DNA from: Sphagnum compactum
Taxonomy: Eukaryota
Direction: 5' to 3'
Length of the DNA stretch: 64,000 nt
Assembly (NCBI GenBank): GCA_965153455.1
Contig: OZ234493.1
Span: forward strand, 31,858,213-31,922,212
This document shows, piece after piece, positions 6,501 to 31,600 of the stretch. The notes beneath the pieces are model-generated. The model did no database searches. It was not told the DNA's origin and saw only the letters and a list, made by a program, of their open reading frames with translations. The position numbers were made by a program, and so were the translations under genes. Each line of letters starts with the position of its first letter. Positions within the stretch are counted from its first letter, which is position 1.

Positions 6501-7130
6501 TACTACTACTACAACCATCACAGTCAGTCAGTCATTCAGTCAGTCATCTGCTACACAAAACAAAATCTGCAGAATTGGAAAAAAAATGCACATGAAGGTC
6601 GGGGGTTGTTGGTGAAGAAAGATTACATACCGTTGATCCTCTTGAACATGTCAAACATGACTTCGTGATAGTTGTGGTCCAGAAACCAAATGCTTGCATC
6701 CTTGTCCTCTTCCTCGAATGGTACTGTAATCACCAAACACACACCAGTCAGTAGAAAGACAAAGGAAAAAAAAGCTTCTCAAAATGCTTGAAAATCACTC
6801 CCTCCACCAGTAAACAAACCCTAAACACAAAAACCTCCAAGTACTCCACGAAGCGAGCCTGACTCAAGACGAAGAAGTGGTGGAAAACAACAAGCAAAAG
6901 AAAACACACACACACACAGAGCAGTGGAGACTTCTCTTGCCTGCATAGCTGTTGGTGATGTCCACACGACCCCGGAAAGTGGAGCCTAGAAGAACCCCCA
7001 ACACGCGCTTCTGTGTATCTTTGGCAACTCGGTTGTAATTGTCCACAATACTCAACAACACTAACGGATGCACGACCACTTTCTCTATTCCCTGAACTCC
7101 TGCTGCTCCGACACTCGTTATCACATCCAT
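3524..7130 (-). CDS. RPN8: 26S proteasome non-ATPase regulatory subunit 7 / RPN8 (MPN domain), 10 coding exons
   Basis: Exons (minus): 7130-6941, 6723-6631, 6413-6332, 6178-6082, 5979-5904, 5423-5365, 4868-4746, 4454-4397, 3982-3897, 3592-3524. They join in frame to give [22 protein letters not shown]...[24 protein letters not shown]...[12 protein letters not shown]...[28 protein letters not shown]...[27 protein letters not shown], the recognisable RPN8/PSMD7 sequence. Intron 1 is GC-AG and the others are GT-AG. Confidence 0.97.
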
Positions 7131-7822
7131 CTCGTGATATACAAGCCTTCCTCTTCTTAGGTAGCTCTTTTTTTTTCTGTCCACCCGCCGTCCTCCTCCT
7201 TCCTTCCTCTGCTTCCTGAGGCTTGCACTTCTTCTCAACACTGCTACTCTCTCTCTTCTCTCTGTTTCTCGATTGTCTTTCTCCCTCTTCTGTCTAACAC
7301 TCTCCTCTCTGGTATCCTTTCTCTGTCTCTTCTGTCTCGTTCTCGCTGTATGTCGACCTGTGAGATCCGTGCAAACCCGAAACCCTAATCAGGGAAGCGT
7401 GAAAGCGAACGACGAAAGCGACAAACACGGACACCAAACCCTAATTATTATTGTTGTCTTCCCCACGTCCCTCCTCTGGCCTCCCGTCAAAGAACGTCGG
7501 GAACGTCGATGGGAGCTTCGTCGGGAATCGGGAAGAAGACGAAGCGCAGGCACGCGGTATCCGCCTTGAACGAAGAAGCGCGCGCCCGCGAAATTTGCTT
7601 GCGCTGAATAATATAACAAAATTTCGAAGTGCGTTTTGGTGCGTGTGTGTGTTTTGTTCTTGTTGCGAAAGATGCCGAAGAATTGAGTGAAGATGCGTTG
7701 AAGTTATTGTCAAGAGGGAAGGAAATGTGAGGAGGTTTCAAACTCTTTTGTTTTGGTCTCAGTTGGAGTTCAAGATAGGAAGAGATCGAGGTTTGAAGGA
7801 GGAGAAGGAGGAGGAGGTTGCC
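7131..7822. promoter_or_regulatory. Short divergent intergenic region (candidate bidirectional promoter plus 5' UTRs) with two telo-boxes
   Basis: 692 bp between the RPN8 ATG (7130, -) and the capping protein ATG (7823, +). CpG-rich core, AAACCCTAA at 7380-7388 and 7436-7444, and a CT-rich tract at about 7245-7345. Confidence 0.65.
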
Positions 7823-10052
7823 ATGGAGGCAGCCATGGATTTGATGCGTAGAATGCCGCCGGCGGAGTGTCAGCAGGCCTTGGCTTCCTTGCTGGCTTTG
7901 TTGCCTTCTCAGTCACCGGAGCTTCTCTCCCGTGTTGATCAACCTCTTCAGGTTTTGTTTTGGTTTGGCGTTTTGTCTTCTCTCTTGGCTTTTTTGTGGA
8001 TCTTCTTTGCCTTCGTTAGTGACTCGCTATGATCGGCAAAAAATCATGTTCATGCGTTTGAACATTTGTGGTTTGAGAATTGATGGGAGAAATTGCTTCT
8101 TGGGAAGAAGTGCAGGTTGCTTGCGATGAAGAACATGCTAAGCAATATCTTCTGTGCGACTACAATCGAGATGGCGATTCTTACAGGTAAATTAATGCCA
8201 ATCTGGGCCTGCTGCTTCTGGTGGAAAACCTTTAATTATATCACAACCATGTTCCAGCATCACTCACTCGTTGCCTCAGAGCTTGTCTTCATAGAAGGGA
8301 AATCGACTGAGCATTCATTGTTCAAGTGTTGGAAAGCCTCTCTCTTCCTTCTTTGGTCAGACCATGCTGTCAACAACAATGAGTAAACAGATGATGATGA
8401 TTGATGTGGGGGCATGGTCTCTTGAGCAGATCGCCATGGTCCAGCAAGTACAGTCCCCCATTGGAGGATGGGGTACAGCCATCAGCAGAGTTGCGCAAGC
8501 TGGAACAGGAGGCCAATGAGGTCTTCTCTATTTACCGTGACCAGTGAGGTCCTTGACGACCTTTTTCTCTTTTTCCTTTCCATTGTTCATTATCATGTTC
8601 CTCTGCTTTTTTTCTTTCAAGTTTTTTGAGAACTGCAATGTTTTCTTCAATTTCTCCTCCGTAAGTAATTGGAGTTTTGCAAGTTTGGTGATTTACTATC
8701 AATTTCCAACAACTGAAATATGCAAGGCACACACCATGATAGGTACTATGAGGGTGGTATCTCATCTGTGTACCTGTGGGAGCCAGAACACGGGAAGGGC
8801 TTTGTAGCTTGTTTCCTAGTAACAAAAGGTATGTCTTCCTCATGAAGTTTACTAACATTTGCAGTAGTAGAGAAACATTCATAACTGACTGGCTGCACTG
8901 GGCAGTTTGTGAATTCTTTGTTTTTCCTCAGGAGTTACCAAATATGGAATTTCCATTGCAGCATTTGATGGTAGCATTTGTACTTCTGATTGTAATGTTT
9001 GCTTTGGAGGATTGTGTATGCAGATAGATTCTGACAAACATCAGTTATGTTGGATGCTTCAGATGGCTCAGAATCTGCAGATGGCCGACGTGGCCTTCTG
9101 CAGCAGGGACTATGGGATGCTATCCATGTCATTGAGGTCATATCATTGCCATGAATTTCAGATACCAATGAGAGGATTTTAAAGTCAAATTATCAAGTGA
9201 CTGACCCATTGAAGCTGGTTGCTTCAAGGCATTCACAAATGCTCAGTTATGACTTGACATTTGAAACATTGTGGGTTCAACAGGTTGGAGAGGAAGATGA
9301 AGGGTCAGTGCACTACTGTCTGACGAGCACAGTCATGCTTGCCCTTACTACAGCTGACCAGTCTTCTGGTTCCTTCAGTTTGTCTGGCTCAATTACCCGC
9401 CAGGTTCTGTTTGATACCATAGAACCTTTGGATTAAGAGCCTTTCATGACCTGTACATTGTAAAACATGCTAGTGATGTTGCTTGCTATAATTTCATGCA
9501 ATTGACTGGCTAATTTCTTAAGTTAGCTTAGTACAGGTTATTATGGATTTATGACATTGAGTGTAAGTTGCAGATGGAGGCAGATGCATCTATGGCAGAT
9601 GGCCACTTATGCAACATGGGGCGTATGATTGAGGAGATGGAAAGTAAGATGCGAAATGGGCTTGATCAGGTTAACTTCTGCATCTTGAGGATGGATTTGG
9701 AAGGAGCAGCTTTATTCAGGGCTGTCAGCTTTATTTAATTAGATAGAAAACTGTGAGAAGTCTGGAATAGCATCATTTCATTCTCAACTTTTTACTGACT
9801 GTCCTAGATGTAGTGCATTTCAAATCAGGTGCTGTCTTGATAGTATGGAGGCTGGCAGCCCTTGACTCTCAAAATCCCGTGTCCTCTCAGAAGGTTAAAC
9901 ATTAAGAAGTATTGTTTGTGGTGCAGGTGTATTTTGGCAAGACCAAAGAAGTGGTGTTCACCCTGCGTGAACCATTGGGAGTGCTGAATGCCAGTTCCCG
10001 CTCAGGGCAGAGCCTACAGCAATGCATAATCAATGAAATCGGGCGCTTTTGA
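7823..10052 (+). CDS. CPB: F-actin capping protein subunit beta, 8 coding exons
   Basis: Exons: 7823-7951, 8116-8186, 8430-8543, 8743-8828, 9063-9136, 9284-9403, 9574-9669, 9927-10052, all GT-AG. Translation [13 protein letters not shown]...[19 protein letters not shown]...[17 protein letters not shown]...WDAIHVIE...[13 protein letters not shown]...[10 protein letters not shown] matches CapZ-beta motifs. Confidence 0.96.
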
Positions 10053-15095: not shown

Positions 15096-15749
15096 TCAAC
15101 AACCACAAGCAGAGGAGGCAGAGAGGTCAGGAGTTTGCTCAGGAGTTTGAGCTGGTCTCAGCAAATTCTTCTTCACCTGTGAGGAGGTATCTGCAGTCAA
15201 GCTGGGAGTATCTAAAATCTTCTGTACAAGTTCATCAAAGCAACGTTGGACATTGATGCTGGTCTTTGCACTGGCCTCAAGAAACAAGCATCCGTGTTGT
15301 CGAGCAAACGCAATCCCTTCTCTCTTTGTCACAACACGCTGGGATTCTTCCAGATCCACTTTGTTGCCGATCAGCATCTTGATACAATCTTGGTTGGTTG
15401 AGTACCGTTCCACTTCCTTGAGCCATATGTCCGACAAGTTCGTGAAAGTCTCCCGTTTTGTCACATCGTAGACTAAGATCACTCCTTGTGCTCCTCTATA
15501 GTACGAGCTAGTCAAAGTTCTGAACCTCTCTTGTCCGGCCGTGTCCCATATGGTGAGCTTCAGCCTCTTCCCTTGCAATGACATCATCTTCAGCTTGAAA
15601 TCGACGCCTATTGTGGGTGAAAGATCGTCAAAAGTGTCGGAAGTGAAGCGGAGAAGCAAACTGCTCTTGCCCACTCCCGAGTCACCAATCAAGAGGACCT
15701 TGAAGAGATGATCAAATTCCCCACTCGCAATATTATTTCTCATCCCCAT
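15096..15749 (-). CDS. RABC1: Ras-related small GTPase RabC (Rab18 family), single coding exon, 217 aa
   Basis: Complete ORF with GDSGVGKS (G1), SPTIGVDF (G2), [22 protein letters not shown] (G3), NKVD (G4), EASAK (G5) and a C-terminal CGC prenylation motif. [22 protein letters not shown] is RabC-type. The paralog number is tentative. Confidence 0.95.
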
Positions 15750-16199
15750 TGCTTAATCTCTCTCTCTCCACCCCTCTTCTTCGCTTATTCTTCCTTCCAC
15801 ACAACAAAAAAGCTTCGAAGTACGTACACTTCTGTTCTGTTCTCTTCAATTCTTCGATCGCCGCTACTCCGATGATTCCTCCAGACGACCAGCGAACTTG
15901 CAAGAAACTTGCAGAAACTCCAACCCTAATTGGTAGGAACACTCTTGCTTCGTGTGTATCTCTCTGCTTCTGAAACCCTAATTGTCGCCCACCGATGGCT
16001 GCAAGCTTTCCTCGAGCGGCGGCGAGCTTTGCGGTCGAGTCCGGCTCCCTTGTGTGCATGCATGCATGCATGAATGTGTGTATGGTATGTGCGCGGACAT
16101 AGACTCGGTTTCTTTTGTGCTACTCTTTTTTTGTTGTCGAATGCAGTTTTCCATTTATAGACAGACAGACAGACAAACAAACAAACAAACAACAACTGA

Positions 16200-18420: not shown

Positions 18421-19032
18421 TCCAAAAATCCAAGGCTTAAGCACTTTGGATTCAATGGAGTTAGTGTTCTCATTGGGAATTTACTTGAATTGAAATTGGC
18501 TTGAAATGAATCAAAAGGGATTGAATATCAATTTGGTTTCAATTCAAACCAAATTCAATTGAATGGAATTCTTTTCATAATTTGGTTTAATTGATTAATT
18601 CGACAAAATTATGAAAATTCAATTACAAAAAGGCACATGTTAATTTGACTTTTCATATCCATGTAAGTGGGTTGGTGAAAGGAGTGAGGTAGTTAAATGA
18701 TTATGGAATGCTTTCATAATTGTCATGACAACCATATATAATTGTCAAGTTGATGATCATATTGGACCCTATACTTTGAACCGATTCTAATTATCATTGT
18801 CATTGGAATTATAGAAAAAAAATTAGGTGGATTTAGAATAGTGAAGCAAATCTCAATCTAGACCAAGAATAAAAAGATGATTTGAACTCCATTCAAACAT
18901 ATACAATTGACCTTTGCTTACTTGCATATGGAATTTCAACTAATACTATAATGAACACTAGTTTGAACCCCGTGCCTAATGCACAGGTTTGTGTGCATTT
19001 GACGGTACATATTACAGAATTACAATTACAAA

Positions 19033-22000
19033 CTACAGTTCCAAAACCTCTTTATATACGACATTTCGCATGTATCTATCGGGACCCTGGCCATTGAAAA
19101 TCTTGATGTTTGCACTACTTGTGACCCGTGAAATAGCAACATACAACTGACCATGGGAATAGACCGGAGACGACAAATATACCCCAACGTTGTTGAATGT
19201 CTAACCTTGATTCTTGTTGATTGTGATCGCAAATGCCACTCGAACTGGAAATTGACGACGACGCAAAACAAATGGCCAATCAGTCCCAGAGGGGGACATG
19301 ATGATGCGAGGTATGAACACAAGTTTGCCGACATTGTTTCCTGTGATGATTTTCGCTTCAATGACACGCTGACCTAATCTTTTGACAATCAACCTCGTAC
19401 CATTGCACAATCCTATTGATTGATTGAGATTACGCAACAAAAGGATTGGCACACCCACTTTGAGTTCCAGCTTATGATTTGCGATACCGCTGAATTGCAA
19501 AGTGTTTAGAAATTTCACCGAATACAATGAATCCATTGAAACTCCTGCAACAACACTTGCACCTTCTTCTGTTGGAGTCAAAGAATTTGCGTTCAGGTAC
19601 GTGTGCGATTCTTCAGATAGCGATTCTAAAATTACATTGTTGACTTCATCAACGTTAGTATTTTTGGGGGCTAGAATGCTGCGTTGCATAAGATACATGG
19701 CATCTCTAGAGTGGCACCGGTGATCTAGATAGATGGTTCGGATTAATCCTCTTAAGCTGCAATCTTCTGCTGGCACCCTCATATGGGATGGAATCTTGAT
19801 CCAATCTGGATCGACACTTTCTTCTTCTGCAATGGCAGGAAGATTACCGTCTCCAACATTCAACACCCATTTGGCAAACTCTTGCTGCTCTTCAGAATTG
19901 GTTGCCATGACTCGCATGTTGATATGAAGATGAAAAATTGTAACATGCTGCCAAAGATGCGATCGAGGCAAGGAAGCACTGACAATGTCTTCTCGTCCCC
20001 CCTTGGGAACAACAGGCAAGATCTGTCGAAAATAACCACCAAGGACCACGGTTTTCCCACCAAAGATTTTATCGGTTGCTTGTGCGTCATCCAATTGCAT
20101 CAAATCACGCAGGGTGCGATCAACAGCTTCGAAAGTTCGGCGATGCATCATCGGTGCCTCATCCCAAATGATCATATCAGCTCTACGCACCAACTCGGCC
20201 ACTTTCATCTGTTGTGTGATGTTGCAAGTTGACTCATCGTGCAGATCAGTCGGAATCTTGAATCTTGAATGGGCGGTTCTGTCGCCCAGAAGCAACAAAG
20301 ATGCAACTGATCGTGTGATGTTTCCTGATGAGGCAACTGCAAGCACGATTTTGCCTTGCCCTCGTAGACGGGACAGAAGTGTTGTCCAAACAAATGTTTT
20401 GCCGGTTCCACCACTGCCATACACAAAGAATAGTTTGCCCTTTTTGTTTGTCACGACATTCAAAATAATTTCATATGCGTTGCACTGATCATCATTGAGC
20501 CTATCTTCCGCATTGTCTGCATCTGTGGTCAATGAATGCTGATCATAAGCCAACTCTTCTTCGACCAATCGGTTTCCTCCATGAACAGAAGGGATGTAAT
20601 TAGACTTGGGAAGCGTTGGAAAATCTTCCAGGCGGTGTCCATTGCGCATGAGAACCTGATCGATCTCATACAATGCACGATCCTTTAGCGCATCCTCAGA
20701 AAGGGTAACAATTGGATCAACACGCTCGCAACGTGTCATTGCTTCTATGTCATCGCTCAAAGACTCCCAATGTGCATCCCATAGCTGTCTGGGATTCGTG
20801 ACCTCACAAAACATCAACATGGAGGCAAACATGTCACGCAGCTGTCGTCCTAAGGCCCAAACATCGGCTTCTTCCAAGGTTTGATGCCATTCATTGTTGT
20901 CTACAAGCAAACCCATTGCAATGCATGCATGTTTGAATGTGTCGTGCTCTTTGCCATCCACTGTCCGCAAATGCTCGTAGGATGTGGCACCTTTGACGCA
21001 GTTCAGCAGCATTCGCAAATAATAACGTTCACCTGATGTCGAGTGTGCATAATACATGCGACCAATGGCAAAGCCTCTCTTGCGCATTGTCCATCGCTTC
21101 AACTTCCGATTCCACACCCATTGCTGAGGGAATTGATCGAACGTAAGGCTTCGTGCAACTTCCGATTCTTGGTTTGATTTGAACCATTCTGTGAGCATCG
21201 TTTTGGAAATGGCTGACCGTGTTGCCACTTCCTGCACATCATCGTCATCGTCAAACAACACCATTTGTTGATTGGGCAAATGGTATTGTAGGTGTTCAAC
21301 GGTAGGAAACCGTTCATGCATATCAAACTTGAAGATGCGCCACGCTGCTTCCGATGCAGATACATAGCGACAGTCGAGATATTTTTTAATTTCATCAGTT
21401 TCGACCACATTCCCTTCGGTGGCATTGTCGCTCTAGCGTGAGATTTCAACAGTTGCACGATCATGTCCTTTATATACGTACTTGAATAGATATTTGACTG
21501 CACGAATATTGTTGCAGACCTCAACGTTGATGTGCGCATCGTATTTGGTCGATAAATAGACATTGTGCGGTACCACCCAATGATTGTCCAATTCAATGCC
21601 ATGAACCAAAACTGTGTGCCCCGTATCTCTATGCCGATAAATAGGGTATCCGTTTACATCCGTCACCGTCTCGGATTTGAACTTGCGTGGATATTTTTTT
21701 TGCATTTGCCTTCTTCCATGCACGGGGCATTTGGAAACGCAGCTCCACATGGACCATGCATCATGCATCTGGCAACCGTCTCGTGGGCCAACTTGTTTGT
21801 TTTTGAATTCGGAAGTTCAACACTGATCATGCGGTCTACATCCTCGACTGTGTGTGGCTTGCAATCTTTGATAAAGAAGATGAGAATGTGTGCATGCGGC
21901 AGCGCGCGCTTTTGAAATTCAACGACATAGATTCCCGCAATTGTGTGTCCCAGAATATGCTTCTTGTGAATGTCATTGATCAACTCCTTTAGCTTGATTT

Positions 22001-22765
22001 TGAATATTCGGGTTACCAAATCCGGTCGATCCTGAGGTTGCTATCCGAGTAGCAACGCTCTCTTGATTTCAAGCCATTGGGGATTGCAAGTGAATGTAAC
22101 AAATGCATCCGGGCAGCCGGCCCATCTGCAAATTGCCATGGCATCTTGATAATTCTGAACCATGTGACGTGGACCTACTGTGAAAGAAGATGGCAGAATG
22201 ATCCTCTGTCCGATGGCAGCAGGCAACAGCGTTATTGTCACCTGTAGTGATGGCGTCTTAAAGGCCTTGATAAAAATCCGCGCGAAGTTTTTTTTTATTT
22301 AGGCGCAGATACTTCAAGCGACTTTGTTCGATAGCCGCATAAGCATCCACAATGTATTGATGCCGCAATCGGTCACCCCGAAGCAACGCAATGCCATCAG
22401 TGTCTCGATGTTGAAGTCGATAACCATAAAATTTCGCCATTGTCACATTGCAATGTTTTCTTTGAAGCTCAGATTCTTCCGCATGGTCTTCATCCAAATT
22501 TACATCAGCAACAACACCATTGAGCAGAATATTCGGATGCCATCCATCCTCACCGTAAGGAAATAACAACGGATAATGTAGAGCCATGTATCCCACATGT
22601 AGTTCGGAAATGCGCTGAAACGGGCTAGCTTGCTGAGCAATGACGACGTCACGTCTGTTTACAGCCTCAGAACCATTTCCTACCATCAATGAAGCGACTT
22701 CATCGGCCGTCGGCACATTCTATTGGCGGGCATCCTTTGTTCAAGAGGCAATGAGACGCAATTAG
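19033..22765 (-). pseudogene. Helitron Rep (HUH endonuclease) - Pif1 helicase pseudogene
   Basis: Rep motifs FVTFTCNPQW, VEFQKRALPHAHIL (HUH) and KYLFKYVYKGHDR (Y2). Helicase motifs GSGGTGKT, IIWDEAPM, LGGYFRQILPVV, QFPVRVAFAITINKNQG and HGQLYVAISRV. True stop at 19033-19035. In-frame stops at 19201, 21433, 22041, 22258 and two near 22720-22745. Frameshifts near 21695 (T run) and about 22230. Confidence 0.95.
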
Positions 22766-23243
22766 CCAAAGCACTACCATGTTGCGCAATGAGTCCACGC
22801 AAACGTTCTTGTATATCTTCGGGCATCTTGGGGCGGGGGGTTTCTCCTGCACTCTTCTGTGCTGGTGCTGTGTGTGTGGACATTGTTGAAGTCTAGCTAC
22901 ATCAACTGAAGAATTGTGCAGGCAGCGCTACTGGTGTCAAAATGTGAGCCAAAATCAATCCCCAGTGTGGCGGAGGAAATGAAAGTCCATGGCTTATTAG
23001 TTTGTACTTACTTATTTGCTTGAGGTGTTGTTGATTCCTGCAAAGATCACAATAGAGAAGAAGAGAAAGTGAGAGAGAAAAAAAGAGAGTATTTCAAAGC
23101 AGTATTGTGTGGACTTATCAAAATCCATCTTCTCTCATTTGAATGTGATTAACTTACTGTGTAGTATTGGACTTACTTATTAAATGACAAAGAGGGACTG
23201 GATAGGTGTTTTTGGGTGGGGGGGGGAATTAATTGGTGGTTGG

Positions 23244-23970
23244 TCATTCAAGAGTTGGTGTTGACAGTCGGTGGTTCCCTATGATTCGACCCCACTTCAA
23301 GCCCAGGAACAGTCGACCAATTTCAACACCCTTGAGCCTAACATCTGTAGTTAGCTCTTCCTCTTGCAATACTTTTGTCAACGTCATTGCACATGTCCCC
23401 ATGAAGTCCTGTGGTCAATCCTAATACAATTGTTTAGAGCTTGTTTGGGGAAAATGATCACTGGAAGGAGTGGGCAGGCATTTCAGGTTCACAGGTTTTC
23501 CTTGCCAGAATTTTGGCAAGCATGTAAGGTTTTGGAGACAGGTAGCTTGGTGCATCAACTGTGCCTTCACTTCCCACCTTCTGAGGTGAAATCCTATTGT
23601 TGCAAGTTCAGGAACACAATCTTTGGATTGGAATCATGAAATGCCATTTATGTTGTCAAGTACATCTCTCCATGTGGCTGGATTTATTCTCCATCAAGCC
23701 AAAGAAAAGCAGTTACCAAAAACTCTATATTCATCTACTGCTACTTCTTGATCATTATTAAATTGATGTGTCACATTGCAGTAAATGAACTGCAAACTAA
23801 GTTTCTTGTTGTGTTTACAACAGGTAATGAAATTTGTGGTGAAGGAAAGGAAGAACCTTGCCAAATGTGTCTTTGTCCCACACCTCCACTATAAGCATAT
23901 CTTGAACAACATTTGCCACAAAGAAGTGAAATGTTTGGTTCCACATAGGATTCAAATTCTTTGGAATTAC
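23244..23970 (-). pseudogene. Captured fragment of a plant synaptotagmin (SYT4/SYT5 type): last two exons of the C-terminal C2 domain with their intron
   Basis: Exon 23970-23857 (cag|...|gt) reads VIPKNLNPMWNQTFHFFVANVVQDMLIVEVWDKDTFGK. Exon 23408-23244 (cag|...TGA) reads DFMGTCAMTLTKVLQEEELTTDVRLKGVEIGRLFLGLKWGRIIGNHRLSTPTLE*. These join in phase 0 and parallel the recalled SYT5 C-terminus (LNPVWNQTFDFVV...DML.LEVWDHDTFGKD..G.C..TLT.V..EEE...L.LKW). Absent from the ORF track. Confidence 0.85.
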
Positions 23971-26724
23971 CTGCAGAACAAATAATCAGACTGTAAATAA
24001 GGAGTGAAATGGGTAATTAATGATCCATGTAGTAACTTTGAAGTGGATGTCATTGGCATCCTGTTGGTTGCCTTCGAATTTGGAGCATCTGCTATTTGTA
24101 CAGGTATTTTGGGTGCATGCAACTATCCCAAACTATTACCAGAAGTAAGGTGCTATCCACAAATGTTCTGTATCATTTCCCTTTGTGTGTATGACATTCA
24201 AAAAGTCTTTAGAAAATATGTTAGAACCACAAAGGGTGGAATCCAAGGTGGTGTGTGTGCTCCCACCCGGGCCATTGTTTAGGCTCCAGATGAGACATGG
24301 AAATACCACATACATCCATGAAAATGACTTGGTATCTGCTTTGGAGCTTGGCTGGTTAGGTAGAATAGGGCTATAATGCATGTTACCTCCTGTAATTATT
24401 CACAGGCTCCCTCCTGCCACATCTTTTTCTATGGAGAAAGTGACTAGTTGATTATATCAATTGAAGGATTTGGTCAGTAGCAACCAATGACGATTCTATT
24501 ATATTGTGTTGCCGCTCCTTTAAGTTACAATTTGGATTGTATCTGCAGGGATAAGAATTTGAAGAACAGTCCCAAAAAAAGTTTTAAAAACACCATGTTC
24601 TTTCCAATATAGCCCCAAATCCCAATAGAATATAGCCAACAACTTCCCTTGCTACTGGTCTTATTGATAAAGAAGTATTTAATTCGGTGACCTTTAGACC
24701 GAGAACCGAAGTTTGCAAAGCGCACTACCTACATATTCCTTTATAACTACTGACAACAGGAACCAATACTATACACTGCACATGTACTAATAATTAAAAA
24801 ACAAAATTTGCATTAAGGAAAGTAGAAGATTTTACCTGGCCATAAAATCAGATGTGGTTGGGATTGAACAAAACCAACCCAAGGACGACACGTTCTGGTG
24901 GCTTGCATGAATCGATGGTCATCGATCTCCTTTGTCTAGCAACAGGAAGACACAGGTTTCAAGGCAGAAGCTTGAGCAGCATAGATATCATAAAGATTGT
25001 AATAATCATCAAGGACCTGAGAGAGAAACCTTATTAAGATAAGTGGGCCCCAACCTTGCTTGAGGTGTCGTTGATACTAAAGAAGGAGCAGAAGCAGCAG
25101 CAGCAGCATCTAACCACCGAGTGATCATGGAGCTCGAGCACGCGCACGCGATTTTGCGAAAGCTGGGAGCAGATGGCCCGGATGGATTCCTGAGGGAAGA
25201 AGCGTCTGCTGCGCGGGAGCTCGCGAGGGTGGTAGCAGCAGTTGCGACACCCTTCGTGCAGTGTGAATGTGTCCGCGTGCACGCGGGTGCGAGATGGCTT
25301 CTCAACCGCCCGCTCGCAGCCGGTTGGGCCAATCGGCCTAGTCAATACTTACGTGGAGCTTTTGCATTGGTGGAGAGAATTGGCACATCCAATCAATACG
25401 AAGGAAGACAGAGTTGGACGGATGACGGGACGAATTAAGGGGAAGCTTCTGATGTCCTTTAATATATATAATTGTCTAGTTGGATAAAGCGTGGGCAATG
25501 GAAGTAATGAAGCACTTTGTGATGGCCATCAAAGGGATATCAACCAAGCAAAATATATTGGAAGACTTGAAAAAACAATTAAAAATCAATGAAGTGGTGG
25601 TTGAAGCTCGCAAACATGCCCAAAAATCCTAGGTAACAAATTTAAAACAATTCTTCCAAAGAATCATGCAATTGAAGCTAGCAAACAATTTTAGGATTGG
25701 GACAAAAACATGTCAATAATTCTTGAAGCTATCATTGACCAAAGCTTGCATTATAACAACAATGTCCTCTTTTGTTCTTGAATTGCTAAGATGTCAAGCT
25801 ATACACATGAATTTCATTGTTAATAGCAACTCTTGCTCAAAATTTAACCTACCAGTTGATGGAATCTAAAATACAAACATTTATCCATGAATGATATGAT
25901 GGAAATAAAAAATGTTTTGCAAAATTCAAAGAAAAACAAAAAAAAAAAGAACACAAAACAATGTTTCAAGATGTTGTGGGCATCTTTTACTAGCACCCCA
26001 AATACATGTAAAGCAATGGTACATGCACATAGAGTGAGTGCAAGATAAGGTGGCCCAAAAAAACAACATTTGAATACATTAACCAAAGTCTATTTCTTTT
26101 GAATCTTTTTGAGTCTAGAAGGACTAAGTAGTTAAGCAACAACAATCCACCAATTACGAGCAAAAATAAACCCACCTACAAATAATTGTTTTATATTTGT
26201 GTGCACAAACCCAACATAAGATGAATATTTTTCCATCAGTGATATGGATTTTTGAAAAGATCAATATTTTTAACACTCACAAAAAAAGATTTAAAAAAAT
26301 TCATTTTGGATAACTTACAAATTTTCAAATGCTTCAAAATTCTCAAAATTGGATTTAAATAATATATTGCTTAATTAAAATGACAACAATAATATCAATC
26401 ATTGAACCATTTTGAAACCTAAATATTCACATGCTTTTTCATAAACTATTTGCTCATCTAGTATAGTGAATAATGCCATATCTTTTCTTTTCTTCCACGA
26501 TTGCAGCCTTTTTGAGCCTCTCAACTACCATATCTACATGTTGTCCTGAGCTTGAGCTTGCATTGTTGATCCTTTTCATGTTTGATGATTTTTGTTCTTA
26601 TCAGTTGTCTCAGATCCATGTCGCCTCCTCAAGCTAAACCTTGCTTCAAAATTTGGTGGGTGATTAATTTCCACTCACCAGAAGAATCTGCACTACAAAA
26701 AGTAGTTCTCTTAATTGGCATTGT

Positions 26725-28605: not shown

Positions 28606-31600
28606 TCAGTCGTCTTCCACCTCTTCCAGCTGTGCCCGCCTTGCAGCTGCCTGCTTGCGAACAAATATTCCCCAACGCAACGCAGCCTTCAGTTTTAACC
28701 ACCCAACACCAGCCTTGCCATTTGCACGGGTTTCCTGGGTCCTTAAAGTGGGAACCCCAACTTGAGGGCCAGAAAAGTCATAATCTTCCCCTGCCAAAGT
28801 TCCCTCCCCTGTATTAAACATCCGCAACAGCTGCTGGATCTGTGAGTGCATATCCTCATTTTCAAGGAGCTCCAAGCTCCTAGCCCGGAGCTCCTCTTCA
28901 CTTGGCAATTCTTCAAGTGTAAGACCTGGCACATAGGTCTCCTGGACATGAGCCTGCCATTCAATTCCTCCAGATGAAGTATTCATCATGCCAGAAGGCA
29001 TACCAGGATCCAAAGCTAAAAACTCTGCATTTGAGGCAGTTAGGCCACTTTGTGGAGGCCCCAAGGCTAACCCAGTCATTCTGCTGTTGCCCACATAGTT
29101 TTGTTGAGAGGAGCTCAAAACAGCAGGTTGGTGCCTTGACTCCATATTGCTGTTCATTTGAAGTACAGAACCCATCAGGCTGTTCTGCTTGGGACCTGGT
29201 GGATGAGTTGATTGACCATATGCTCGGGTGACTATTGAATTTGGATCATATTGAGGCATTGCTGCTCCATTGCCTGCATGATGATGGATATGTGACGAAT
29301 CAGCTTGAAGTTCCTACAATGCTACATCCTACATGGATCACCACATGTATGGGGAAGTTTGATAAACAGGTGAAAAAGGTCATGTAAACTTCAACCAAAT
29401 GATTTCAGCAACTTATTGCAATTTAGAGTAGTCTTGATATTAAACTTATAATTCCCGGACATCCCATATAAACAGTGGAACTAATTAATAGTTTGGATTG
29501 GGATAAAGCATTTCACTGTAGAGGGCACAGACCAGCTGATGAAGTGGAAGGCCGGTGCTGTAGGGGAGCCAATGGTGGTTGCTGAATTTGATTAAGTGTT
29601 GATTGCTGGTTAGACTTGTGAGATTGTGTTGGAGGGGGATTTGCAATTGGAGTGATTGGATCTTCTGTATGGGTATCTATCCCCTTAGCTACTGGGTAGG
29701 GTGAAACCCCAACCAGAGCCTCTCCATCATACTCCACTACATTTTCCCAGTTTTCATAAGCTACTTTCACCAGCTTGTCCACATATACCTGTACAAAAGA
29801 GAGAGAGGATTTAATAAACAACTAAATATTCCCAAAACGACAGAAACATGGGAAAAGTTGAACTTCCACAACTGGACAAAGGTAGAAAGACAAATTTAAA
29901 AAAAAACACTCCTGAGAATTGATACTTACCTTCTCACTATCTGAAAGAGAGTCAACTGACATATATGAGCCATCAGCAATGAGACCCATCAGTTGGAAGA
30001 TGTTGTTGAAGATGACACCAATGTTTTGCTTTTCATCAGCATAGTAAACATGTAGCTTGCCACTTAGCACACATGTCTTAGCATGCTCCACAGTTCCCTC
30101 CCACATCTTGTTTGACATTCCATTCCCCAATGTCTATTCCCACCACCCCCTTGCATCAGCCTTCTGCATCATGAAATACATGCGAAAACAATGTACACTA
30201 CTAACGCCAAAGAATGAGCCCTGTGCCACAAACAAGATCCATGGCCAACAAGCAAGCCAAAGAGAGTTTGCAGGTATCATTACATTGCGCAGCCTTTGAG
30301 GATCCATGACGACCAGACGCAGGAAGTCCTCAACTGTTATAATGTTAGCTTGGTTAAGGCGCTTATGAAAAGCACCATCCTTCCCAATCTTATCCAAACG
30401 CCACACCTCATCATGCAATGCTGGTGGATAGTGCTTCTTGTATACTGGAACCACAAACATGTCAGAAACAAGATTAGCCCTCACCAATGTCAAGACCTAT
30501 GTCACCTCTCACACCAGAAGTTGCCTCACCCTACATGCCTCTTATGAGTGATTCAGTTGCACAACACACATACAAGGTCTAAAAGTTTCTCAGAAACTAT
30601 TTGTGTTGAGCCAGCTAAAGTTTTTCTTACACTTTGAATTGAGATGCAGCTAATTCCTCTAATCTTAGTCCTTACAGTTATGTTTCAAGGCTTTGCTAAT
30701 AGACACTGATTCAAACCTAGTCTGTAATTACAAAATTCCCATAACAGCTCCAGAATGAATGATACAACAGTTCATCTGACAAGGCTCAGTAGTGGGTCTC
30801 TGGAATTCATTTAAGTCTGCTACACAGAGAAACATACTGTAGATCCCTTGGGTCCATAGAGTTCCACAGGAAAAAAGATAAGAGACTCTATCAACCATGA
30901 GTACACTTACATTCGCCACGATGATCTTTCACAGTAAATGCCTCAGTCTTGGCTTCTCTAATTCGCAAGCCCTCACAAAATCCTGAAGAGATTTTAACCC
31001 CCAAGCGGAACTTACGACTACGGATCCAACTGGAATTGTCTGTGAATGTTAACTCTCCAAGTGTTCCCACCCCATCTTTCAATGTGACAGAAAGTTCTCC
31101 AGTAAGCAATGGCCTTTTGCCATCTCTTTCCCTGACCTCAGCATTCTCAAATTCTGTCTGTATCCAGTTCTCTTCATCATCAACTGCAAAGTCACCCTCC
31201 AAGACGACTATATCCAATTTGGCAGATGATTCTGGACCTGCAGTTACAACCTGGCCCGTGCTGGCATCCAGCAACACAACATGAATTGCAGTTCCTTGTT
31301 CTCCCTCTACTTTGCCTCCTGTGAATAGAGGGAGAGCTAACTTGTTCCTGAACTGCAGCCGCAGATCTCGTTGGTTGGGCCCCTGTATCCTTTTTGGAGA
31401 TGACCTGCAAAATTATGCAGTCACTACTAGAGTTGTCAAAACAATCCACCAGTGTTCAGATTTACCATCTTATTTTTCCCTCTACTATGGACAAGATCAC
31501 AAAAAACAGATCGGCTCACGGAAGGAATGATTTTCACACAAGGAAGAGACAGTAATTTATCAACTATCATCAATCTATTCAACTGCATATATAGGGGATG

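Follow-up and report, generated by a model that had tools for sequence, protein, structure and literature searches.

A Helitron of the moss Sphagnum compactum carries the last two exons of a synaptotagmin 4/5 (SYT4/5)-like gene, acquired by transduplication at the DNA level as the initial annotation of this DNA had proposed. This conclusion follows from an intact, unlinked parent gene on another contig, from the retention of both introns in the captured stretch, and from the amplification of that stretch in eight element copies. Maize offers well-known examples of gene-fragment capture by Helitrons, and the case described here is a real yet ordinary capture in which the SYT piece gives no sign of retention by selection. 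Its value lies in its resolution: the parent, the copies, the nested order of the captured pieces, and the junctions can all be read.

Helitron and captured exons

The window analyzed is a stretch of 64 kb (G000:C1:31858213-31922212) from an assembly of 382 Mb, and coordinates given without a contig name refer to it. An HLE1-type Helitron of 6,514 bp occupies positions 18958..25471 on the minus strand, between an A at 25472 and a T at 18957, and its flanks contain no target duplication. Its 3' end (18958..18987, minus strand) is a subterminal hairpin with a CTAG terminus followed by T (CTAG|T), which agrees with the CTRR consensus and is identical in copies with other flanks. At the 5' terminus (25420..25471, minus strand), the first bases are TT rather than TC. 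An A|TTATATATA-like start is common to 11 of 17 complete 5' ends with unrelated sequence upstream, and the terminus also matches two relatives with different cargo (L162 and L167). Flank divergence among the copies places the end of the element at 25471, 13 nt further in than the position first proposed (25484), where the TC belongs to the flank. Helitron 5' ends are permitted to begin with T(C/T). In L031, the locus of copy C15, the terminal bases of the 3' end are swapped for ∼15 nt that repeat the element's own 5' flank in the manner of a target duplication.

The Rep/Hel transposase (19033..22883, minus strand) matches Pfam Helitron_like_N (E = 5.9e-17), REP_ORF2-G2P, and PIF1 (E = 2.3e-80), and no match to RPA was found in the open reading frames scanned. 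It is decayed, with six stops, two frameshifts, and one deletion that removed ∼775 to 796 nt of Rep at 22763/22764. Ten of 16 copies were taken into a transposase alignment, the anchor motif not having been found in the other six, and all 10 are broken, at 2.2 to 2.3 lesions per kb overall and 2.1 per kb in the window copy. In L163 and L162, a large part of the transposase region is inverted.

The captured exons lie inside the Helitron, upstream of Rep/Hel and in the same orientation, as had been annotated. Exon n-1 (23857..23970, minus strand; 114 nt, 38 codons) and the last exon (23244..23408, minus strand; 165 nt, 54 codons plus TGA) flank a 448-nt GT..AG intron (23409..23856, minus strand). 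We confirmed that the AG, GT, and AG signals of the two exons are intact and that they join in phase 0 to give 92 codons without a stop. Exon n-1 encodes the middle of the second C2 domain and matches positions 41 to 78 of the 104 in the Pfam C2 profile (E = 9.3e-10), so that the proposed kinship with C2/SYT proteins holds in a profile search. The last exon by itself has no Pfam match and only three weak matches among 1.84 billion representative sequences, and it is 96% identical to the end of a public gene model, P0011. Plant SYT4 and SYT5 have the architecture TM-SMP-C2A-C2B. Since the cargo encodes no more than the latter half of C2B plus the tail, it is no synaptotagmin.

An intact parent gene on another contig

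The parent SYT4/5-like gene, whose presence elsewhere in the genome had been predicted, is intact on another contig (G000:C3:8909936-8916357), where its exons span P0011 end to end and its two corresponding introns are 96 to 97% identical to those of the cargo. Exon n-1 is matched at 94% by a Sphagnum protein that contains SMP and C2 domains, and all exons of this protein map to C3 when it is used as a genome query. The gene was recognized only via a second gene model, P0001; a search of the genome with the SMP_LBD family missed it and returned one unrelated match. With exon n-1 as the query, nothing was found beyond element copies, the corresponding exon of the parent, and other C2 genes. Like plant SYT4 and SYT5, the parent protein has an SMP match and two C2 matches, and its nearest named relatives, judged from best matches and source names rather than from a tree, are synaptotagmin-5 and -4. 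It differs from them in its low identity, which is at most 43% among these relatives and 43% to Physcomitrium synaptotagmin-5.

These data bear on whether the exons could belong to a SYT gene resident at the window locus or could be a chance resemblance to C2. A tblastn search with P0011 found no further SYT exon in the 64-kb window, including the region beyond 25484 in which upstream exons of a resident gene would be expected, and the complete gene lies on C3. The same stretch also occurs in dispersed elements with unrelated flanks. The parent on C3 and the dispersed copies rule out both ideas, to which we assign next to no probability.

Three host sequences make up the cargo

The proposed capture of the last two exons stands, and the cargo is larger than these exons. 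It comprises 25058-24996 and 24467-23052 and begins at the donor of the preceding exon. Part A (24996..25058, minus strand) takes in the final 4 nt of exon n-2, the adjoining GT donor at 25054-25053, and the start of the intron, and it is 96.8% identical over 63 nt to G000:C3:8911222-8911160. Part B (23052..24467, minus strand) contains the rest of that intron, exon n-1, the next intron, the last exon, and ∼190 nt of 3' flank. It is 95.9% identical over 1,418 nt to G000:C3:8911155-8909739, with a further 20-nt match that extends to 23052; in parent coordinates, the cargo ends ∼235 nt beyond the stop. Altogether, ∼1.5 kb of the parent is present with both introns at 96% identity, and the introns (96 to 97%) are as similar to the parent as the exons are.

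Between the two parts, within the SYT intron, lies a 528-bp piece of other host DNA (24468..24995, minus strand) that is 92.7% identical over 536 nt to G000:C2:24403344-24403851. This source locus has no other match to the element and sits ∼780 nt downstream of a MazG-like open reading frame (E = 9.7e-11). The piece is missing from copies C13, C6, C9b, and C15 and from the parent. The fact that some copies have this insert in the SYT intron and others do not indicates that it was acquired after the SYT capture.

The third piece is a GC-rich module (25075..25419, minus strand) captured from G000:C5:19979570-19979916, with 94.5% identity over 347 nt and no other element match in 10 kb at that locus. 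The GC-rich 5' end from which a chimeric transcript had been suggested to start is therefore present, but it is itself captured host DNA. A counterpart of the source locus occurs in RNA contigs of related mosses, in which the loose end of the contig at 25075 continues as the source locus. No convincing Pfam match for a gene at this locus was found in the 53 open reading frames scanned. Part of the module is inverted in a subfamily (window 25311-25188; L089-L096), and the reads of one RNA run, X24, show the strand switch at 25226/25311.

The SYT cargo is bordered on both sides by remnants of a 48-bp repeat. The remnant on the 5' side (25055..25074, minus strand) ends in a CAAG that is common to the SYT parent. 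On the 3' side, the remnant (23010..23051, minus strand) marks the cargo junction, has a TCT-like overlap with the parent, matches array units of L167, and is followed by the Rep leader. L167, a relative without SYT sequence, has 9.9 units of the 48-bp repeat in the region homologous to the cargo site, and copy C6 has two units before the donor and keeps extra units on both sides of the cargo. A 20-bp direct repeat that flanks the cargo was considered as a target-site duplication and rejected, as it consists of two units of the 48-bp array. The repeats of L167 (L167:9091-9565; G000:C6, ∼16.727 Mb) lie near its 5' end, where the 9.9 48-bp units are accompanied by 5.9 units of a 42-bp repeat; the 48-bp units are similar in sequence to splice donors and acceptors.

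Copies and relatives

Exon sequence was found in eight dispersed elements with unrelated flanks. Both exons are present in six of these (the window copy, C2, C17, C13, C9a, and C6), while C9b has exon n-1 in duplicate and C15 has part of it. Four of the six two-exon copies keep the frame and the splice sites; C9a has a stop and C17 lacks the second acceptor. The exon copy in C9b has a 1-nt deletion. The copies differ from the parent by 2.1 to 3.6% (96 to 98% identity) and from each other by 2.9 to 5.2%, and their tree is star-like with support values of 39 to 75, which gives no reliable branching order.

The family has at least 40 members, counted from the matches listed for the Rep leader. 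Among 33 family loci examined, 5 contain the exons, 12 contain only the SYT 3' flank (∼120 to 200 nt), and 16 contain no SYT sequence. Other DNA occupies the former exon position in the 12 flank-only relatives, one of which carries a piece of a CRAL-TRIO (Sec14-like) exon (L157:7338-7607, E = 2.1e-6) co-oriented with Rep/Hel. A Pfam scan of 104 cargo open reading frames from eight loci gave three matches, one of them below the cutoff and likely due to chance. Behind the 5' end of a relative without SYT sequence lies a co-oriented piece that resembles an aldo/keto reductase (L162:1548-1988; E = 2.5e-4, below the cutoff). Two family members, L080 and L087, lie ∼9 kb apart (G000:C13, 11.78-11.79 Mb), and L087 keeps only ∼310 nt of SYT intron.

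Substitutions in the captured exons

The initial annotation set the open frame of the captured exons against the decay of the transposase. Both halves of that statement are true, but the contrast is accounted for by the small size of the target (276 nt); the nonsynonymous and synonymous changes are neutral in proportion, and two of the six two-exon copies are broken. At the lesion rate of the transposase, a stretch of 276 nt is lesion-free with a probability of 0.53 to 0.54, which upholds an earlier caveat that the lack of stops may be chance. The window copy differs from the parent by three substitutions in exon n-1 and four in the last exon, and seven substitutions produce no nonsense codon with a probability of 0.62.

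The suggested comparison of substitution rates with the parent gave no evidence of selection on the exons. Over the eight copies, 8 synonymous, 14 missense, and 1 stop change were counted, with two changes fixed in all copies set aside, against a neutral expectation of 0.311/0.623/0.066 taken from the spectrum of the non-coding cargo (omega of ∼0.85, P = 0.43). The changes in the transposase over 10 copies are split in the same proportions (312/622/59). There is a mild overall deficit of changes in the exons. Private substitutions number 20/1857 in the exons and 133/7864 in the non-coding cargo (Fisher P = 0.06), and 20 were observed versus 29.7 expected after correction for sequence context (P = 0.04). 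Frame lesions number 2 versus ∼4.2 expected (P = 0.21). The private exon changes are 7 synonymous and 13 nonsynonymous, so that the deficit affects both classes alike and bears no clear mark of protein constraint; weak constraint would be compatible with these counts, which comprise only 23 events. The open frame thus looks like no more than chance, and function cannot be read from an open captured exon next to a dead transposase.

Private changes in the non-coding cargo were found at 49/703 CHG, 54/2459 CHH, and 29/4646 A/T sites. Their density at CHG sites is ∼11 times that at A/T sites, a spectrum that suggests long methylation of the cargo.

Such a spectrum, together with at least eight copies that are 96 to 98% identical to the parent, raises the question of whether the copies give rise to 24-nt siRNAs through which the parent SYT gene is methylated or dampened, an epigenetic conflict of the kind described for maize Helitrons and their donor genes (PMC13317346). 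The 12 fixed differences between the parent and all copies include no excess of CHG transitions on the parent side, although this set is small and unpolarized. In addition, the compared exons of the parent have an intact frame, and related mosses express a counterpart of the gene. On balance, we regard an effect of this kind on the parent as unlikely.

Transcripts

Expression was examined in four of 24 listed runs, all four from related mosses, as judged from the 3' flank of the contigs, which departs from the parent of this genome. Three of the runs are contig sets (X1, X2, and X3), and one (X24) consists of raw reads; the contigs of X1 and X2 are nearly identical, and the two are probably one data set. 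The proposed RNA junction 23857/23408 does occur, with the 448-nt intron spliced out in the three contig sets, but only in transcripts with parent-type letters, and X24 has no reads on the exons. At position 23332, all six covering copies differ from the parent, and the element base appears in none of the three contig sets. The contig from X3 extends into the upstream exon of the parent. Two public gene models, P0001 and P0011, count 10 codons from within the last intron (window 23750-23709) as coding, which may be a model error, since the RNA contigs skip the whole intron.

The initial annotation had also suggested a chimeric transcript from the 5' end of the element, and no joint between 25055 and 23970 was found in the four related-moss runs. 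This is weak evidence of silence, since related mosses were sampled and contigs drop rare forms. In its strongest form, the suggestion is that splicing at the inherited donor (25055|25054) joins the captured GC-rich leader to the SYT exons and that the resulting C2 fragment or regulatory RNA is under selection. The inherited donor is GT in all eight copies that cover it, four of six two-exon copies keep the frame and splice sites, exon substitutions are mildly depleted, and the source locus of the leader occurs in RNA contigs. In phase 0, the frame that leads up to the donor is free of stops for at least 95 codons in 8 of 11 copies (98 codons in the window copy). However, this frame lacks an ATG in the window copy, and a Met occurs in just 5 of 11 copies, where its position is not constant. 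A second upstream frame is as open as the first, and the source locus likewise has both frames open, for which reason we rejected the long frame as a sign of a designed fusion. The exons cover only part of a C2 domain, have neutral nonsynonymous and synonymous proportions, and were overwritten in 12 relatives, and the RNA at 23332 and in the X3 contig is that of the parent. Taken together, these observations make a selected chimeric product very improbable.

Capture mechanism

The short overlaps between the cargo pieces and their sources, the position of the cargo inside the element, and its nesting fit a filler-DNA model with stepwise capture. Filler-DNA acquisition has been described for insect Hel1 Helitrons (PMC6544945), and stepwise capture for maize RepHel Helitrons (PMC3288121). 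Three of the six junctions have overlaps of 4 nt and the other three have overlaps of 1 to 3 nt, lengths that can arise by chance. The SYT cargo has CAAG on its 5' side and the TCT-like overlap on its 3' side; the 528-bp piece overlaps by CCTT at its 3' end, and the GC-rich piece by GTCC at its 5' end.

We propose that, in an ancestral active Helitron, a tandem 48-bp array separated the 5' end from Rep. Breakage within this array or close to it may have been repaired by copying ∼1.5 kb from the 3' end of the SYT4/5-like gene, with synthesis primed on the few bases shared on each side, as in the formation of filler DNA by synthesis-dependent repair. The element would then have spread, and its descendants would have gained more host pieces in the same region, one of them nested in the SYT intron and others overwriting the exons. 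All copies would subsequently have decayed as silenced DNA, and the exons of the window copy would be open because 276 nt with seven substitutions often stay open. No exact precapture element was found among the relatives examined. We hold break repair in the 48-bp array, followed by spread and neutral decay, to be very probably the best explanation of the data.

The other routes of capture considered start from the ends of the element. Read-through at the 3' end does not produce cargo that is internal and lies 5' of Rep, as it does here. Alternatively, a Helitron that once adjoined the SYT gene could have taken up the sequence by end bypass or composite transposition. End bypass is a documented route (PMC4224331), and the 5' ends of some members of the family are extended or nested. 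However, no Helitron sequence was found in the 14 kb that surround the parent, units of the same internal 48-bp repeat lie on both sides of the cargo, and a motif scan of the cargo junctions showed no hairpin-CTAG end inside the element. The junctions and the nesting favor internal filler-type capture, and we consider an origin from the element's ends improbable.

A bolder extension of internal capture is that the 48-bp array is a capture hotspot at which repair primed on AG|GT places host introns and exons in a splice-ready register downstream of a transcribed leader that was itself captured, so that a leader-SYT RNA would arise by exon trapping. At one junction, the CAAG of the element meets the CAAG|GT donor of the parent exactly, and the other coding cargo in the family (CRAL-TRIO and aldo-keto reductase) is likewise co-oriented. 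We regard this extension as a long shot. If splice-donor junctions in the 48-bp array recur family-wide, they would provide a testable sequence rule for the sites of cargo uptake in Helitrons.

Comparison with known Helitrons

Among the systems compared, the maize ZmhelA1-type RepHel Helitrons (Dong et al. 2011, PMC3288121) are alike in having gained several unlinked fragments stepwise and in internal loss from some copies. The element described here differs in its moss host, in the lack of an RPA match in the scanned open reading frames, and in its TT 5' end; in addition, three sources were traced with their junctions, and 10 of 10 aligned transposases are broken. Insect Hel1 elements (PMC6544945) are alike in their internal stepwise gains and in junctions at which the ends share 2 to 13 bp with the sources. 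They are small and non-autonomous, whereas the element described here was once autonomous and contains exon-intron pieces whose junctions fall within a 48-bp tandem array, one of them exactly at a splice donor. The HELIANO report (PMC11417382) describes HLE1 families with stably captured domains and includes a Sphagnum HLE2 with GIY-YIG. Those HLE1 families are alike in having an extra domain upstream of RepHel in an autonomous-type element, but the C2 piece here is unstable (exons in 5 of 33 loci examined) and apparently unconstrained. No account of a moss SYT-carrying Helitron family was found in the literature searched, which comprised main texts and few subscription papers.

Other genes in the window

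An intronless open reading frame of 218 amino acids at 15096-15752 (minus strand), which we take to encode a Rab-like small GTPase, could be a retrocopy. About 3 kb upstream of the Helitron, the exons at 28606-31412 (minus strand) presumably belong to a CBP60-like calmodulin-binding protein gene. Open reading frames at 6864-7388 (minus strand) and 7691-8032 (plus strand) are arranged head to head and appear to us to resemble a proteasome lid MPN subunit and actin capping protein beta, respectively.
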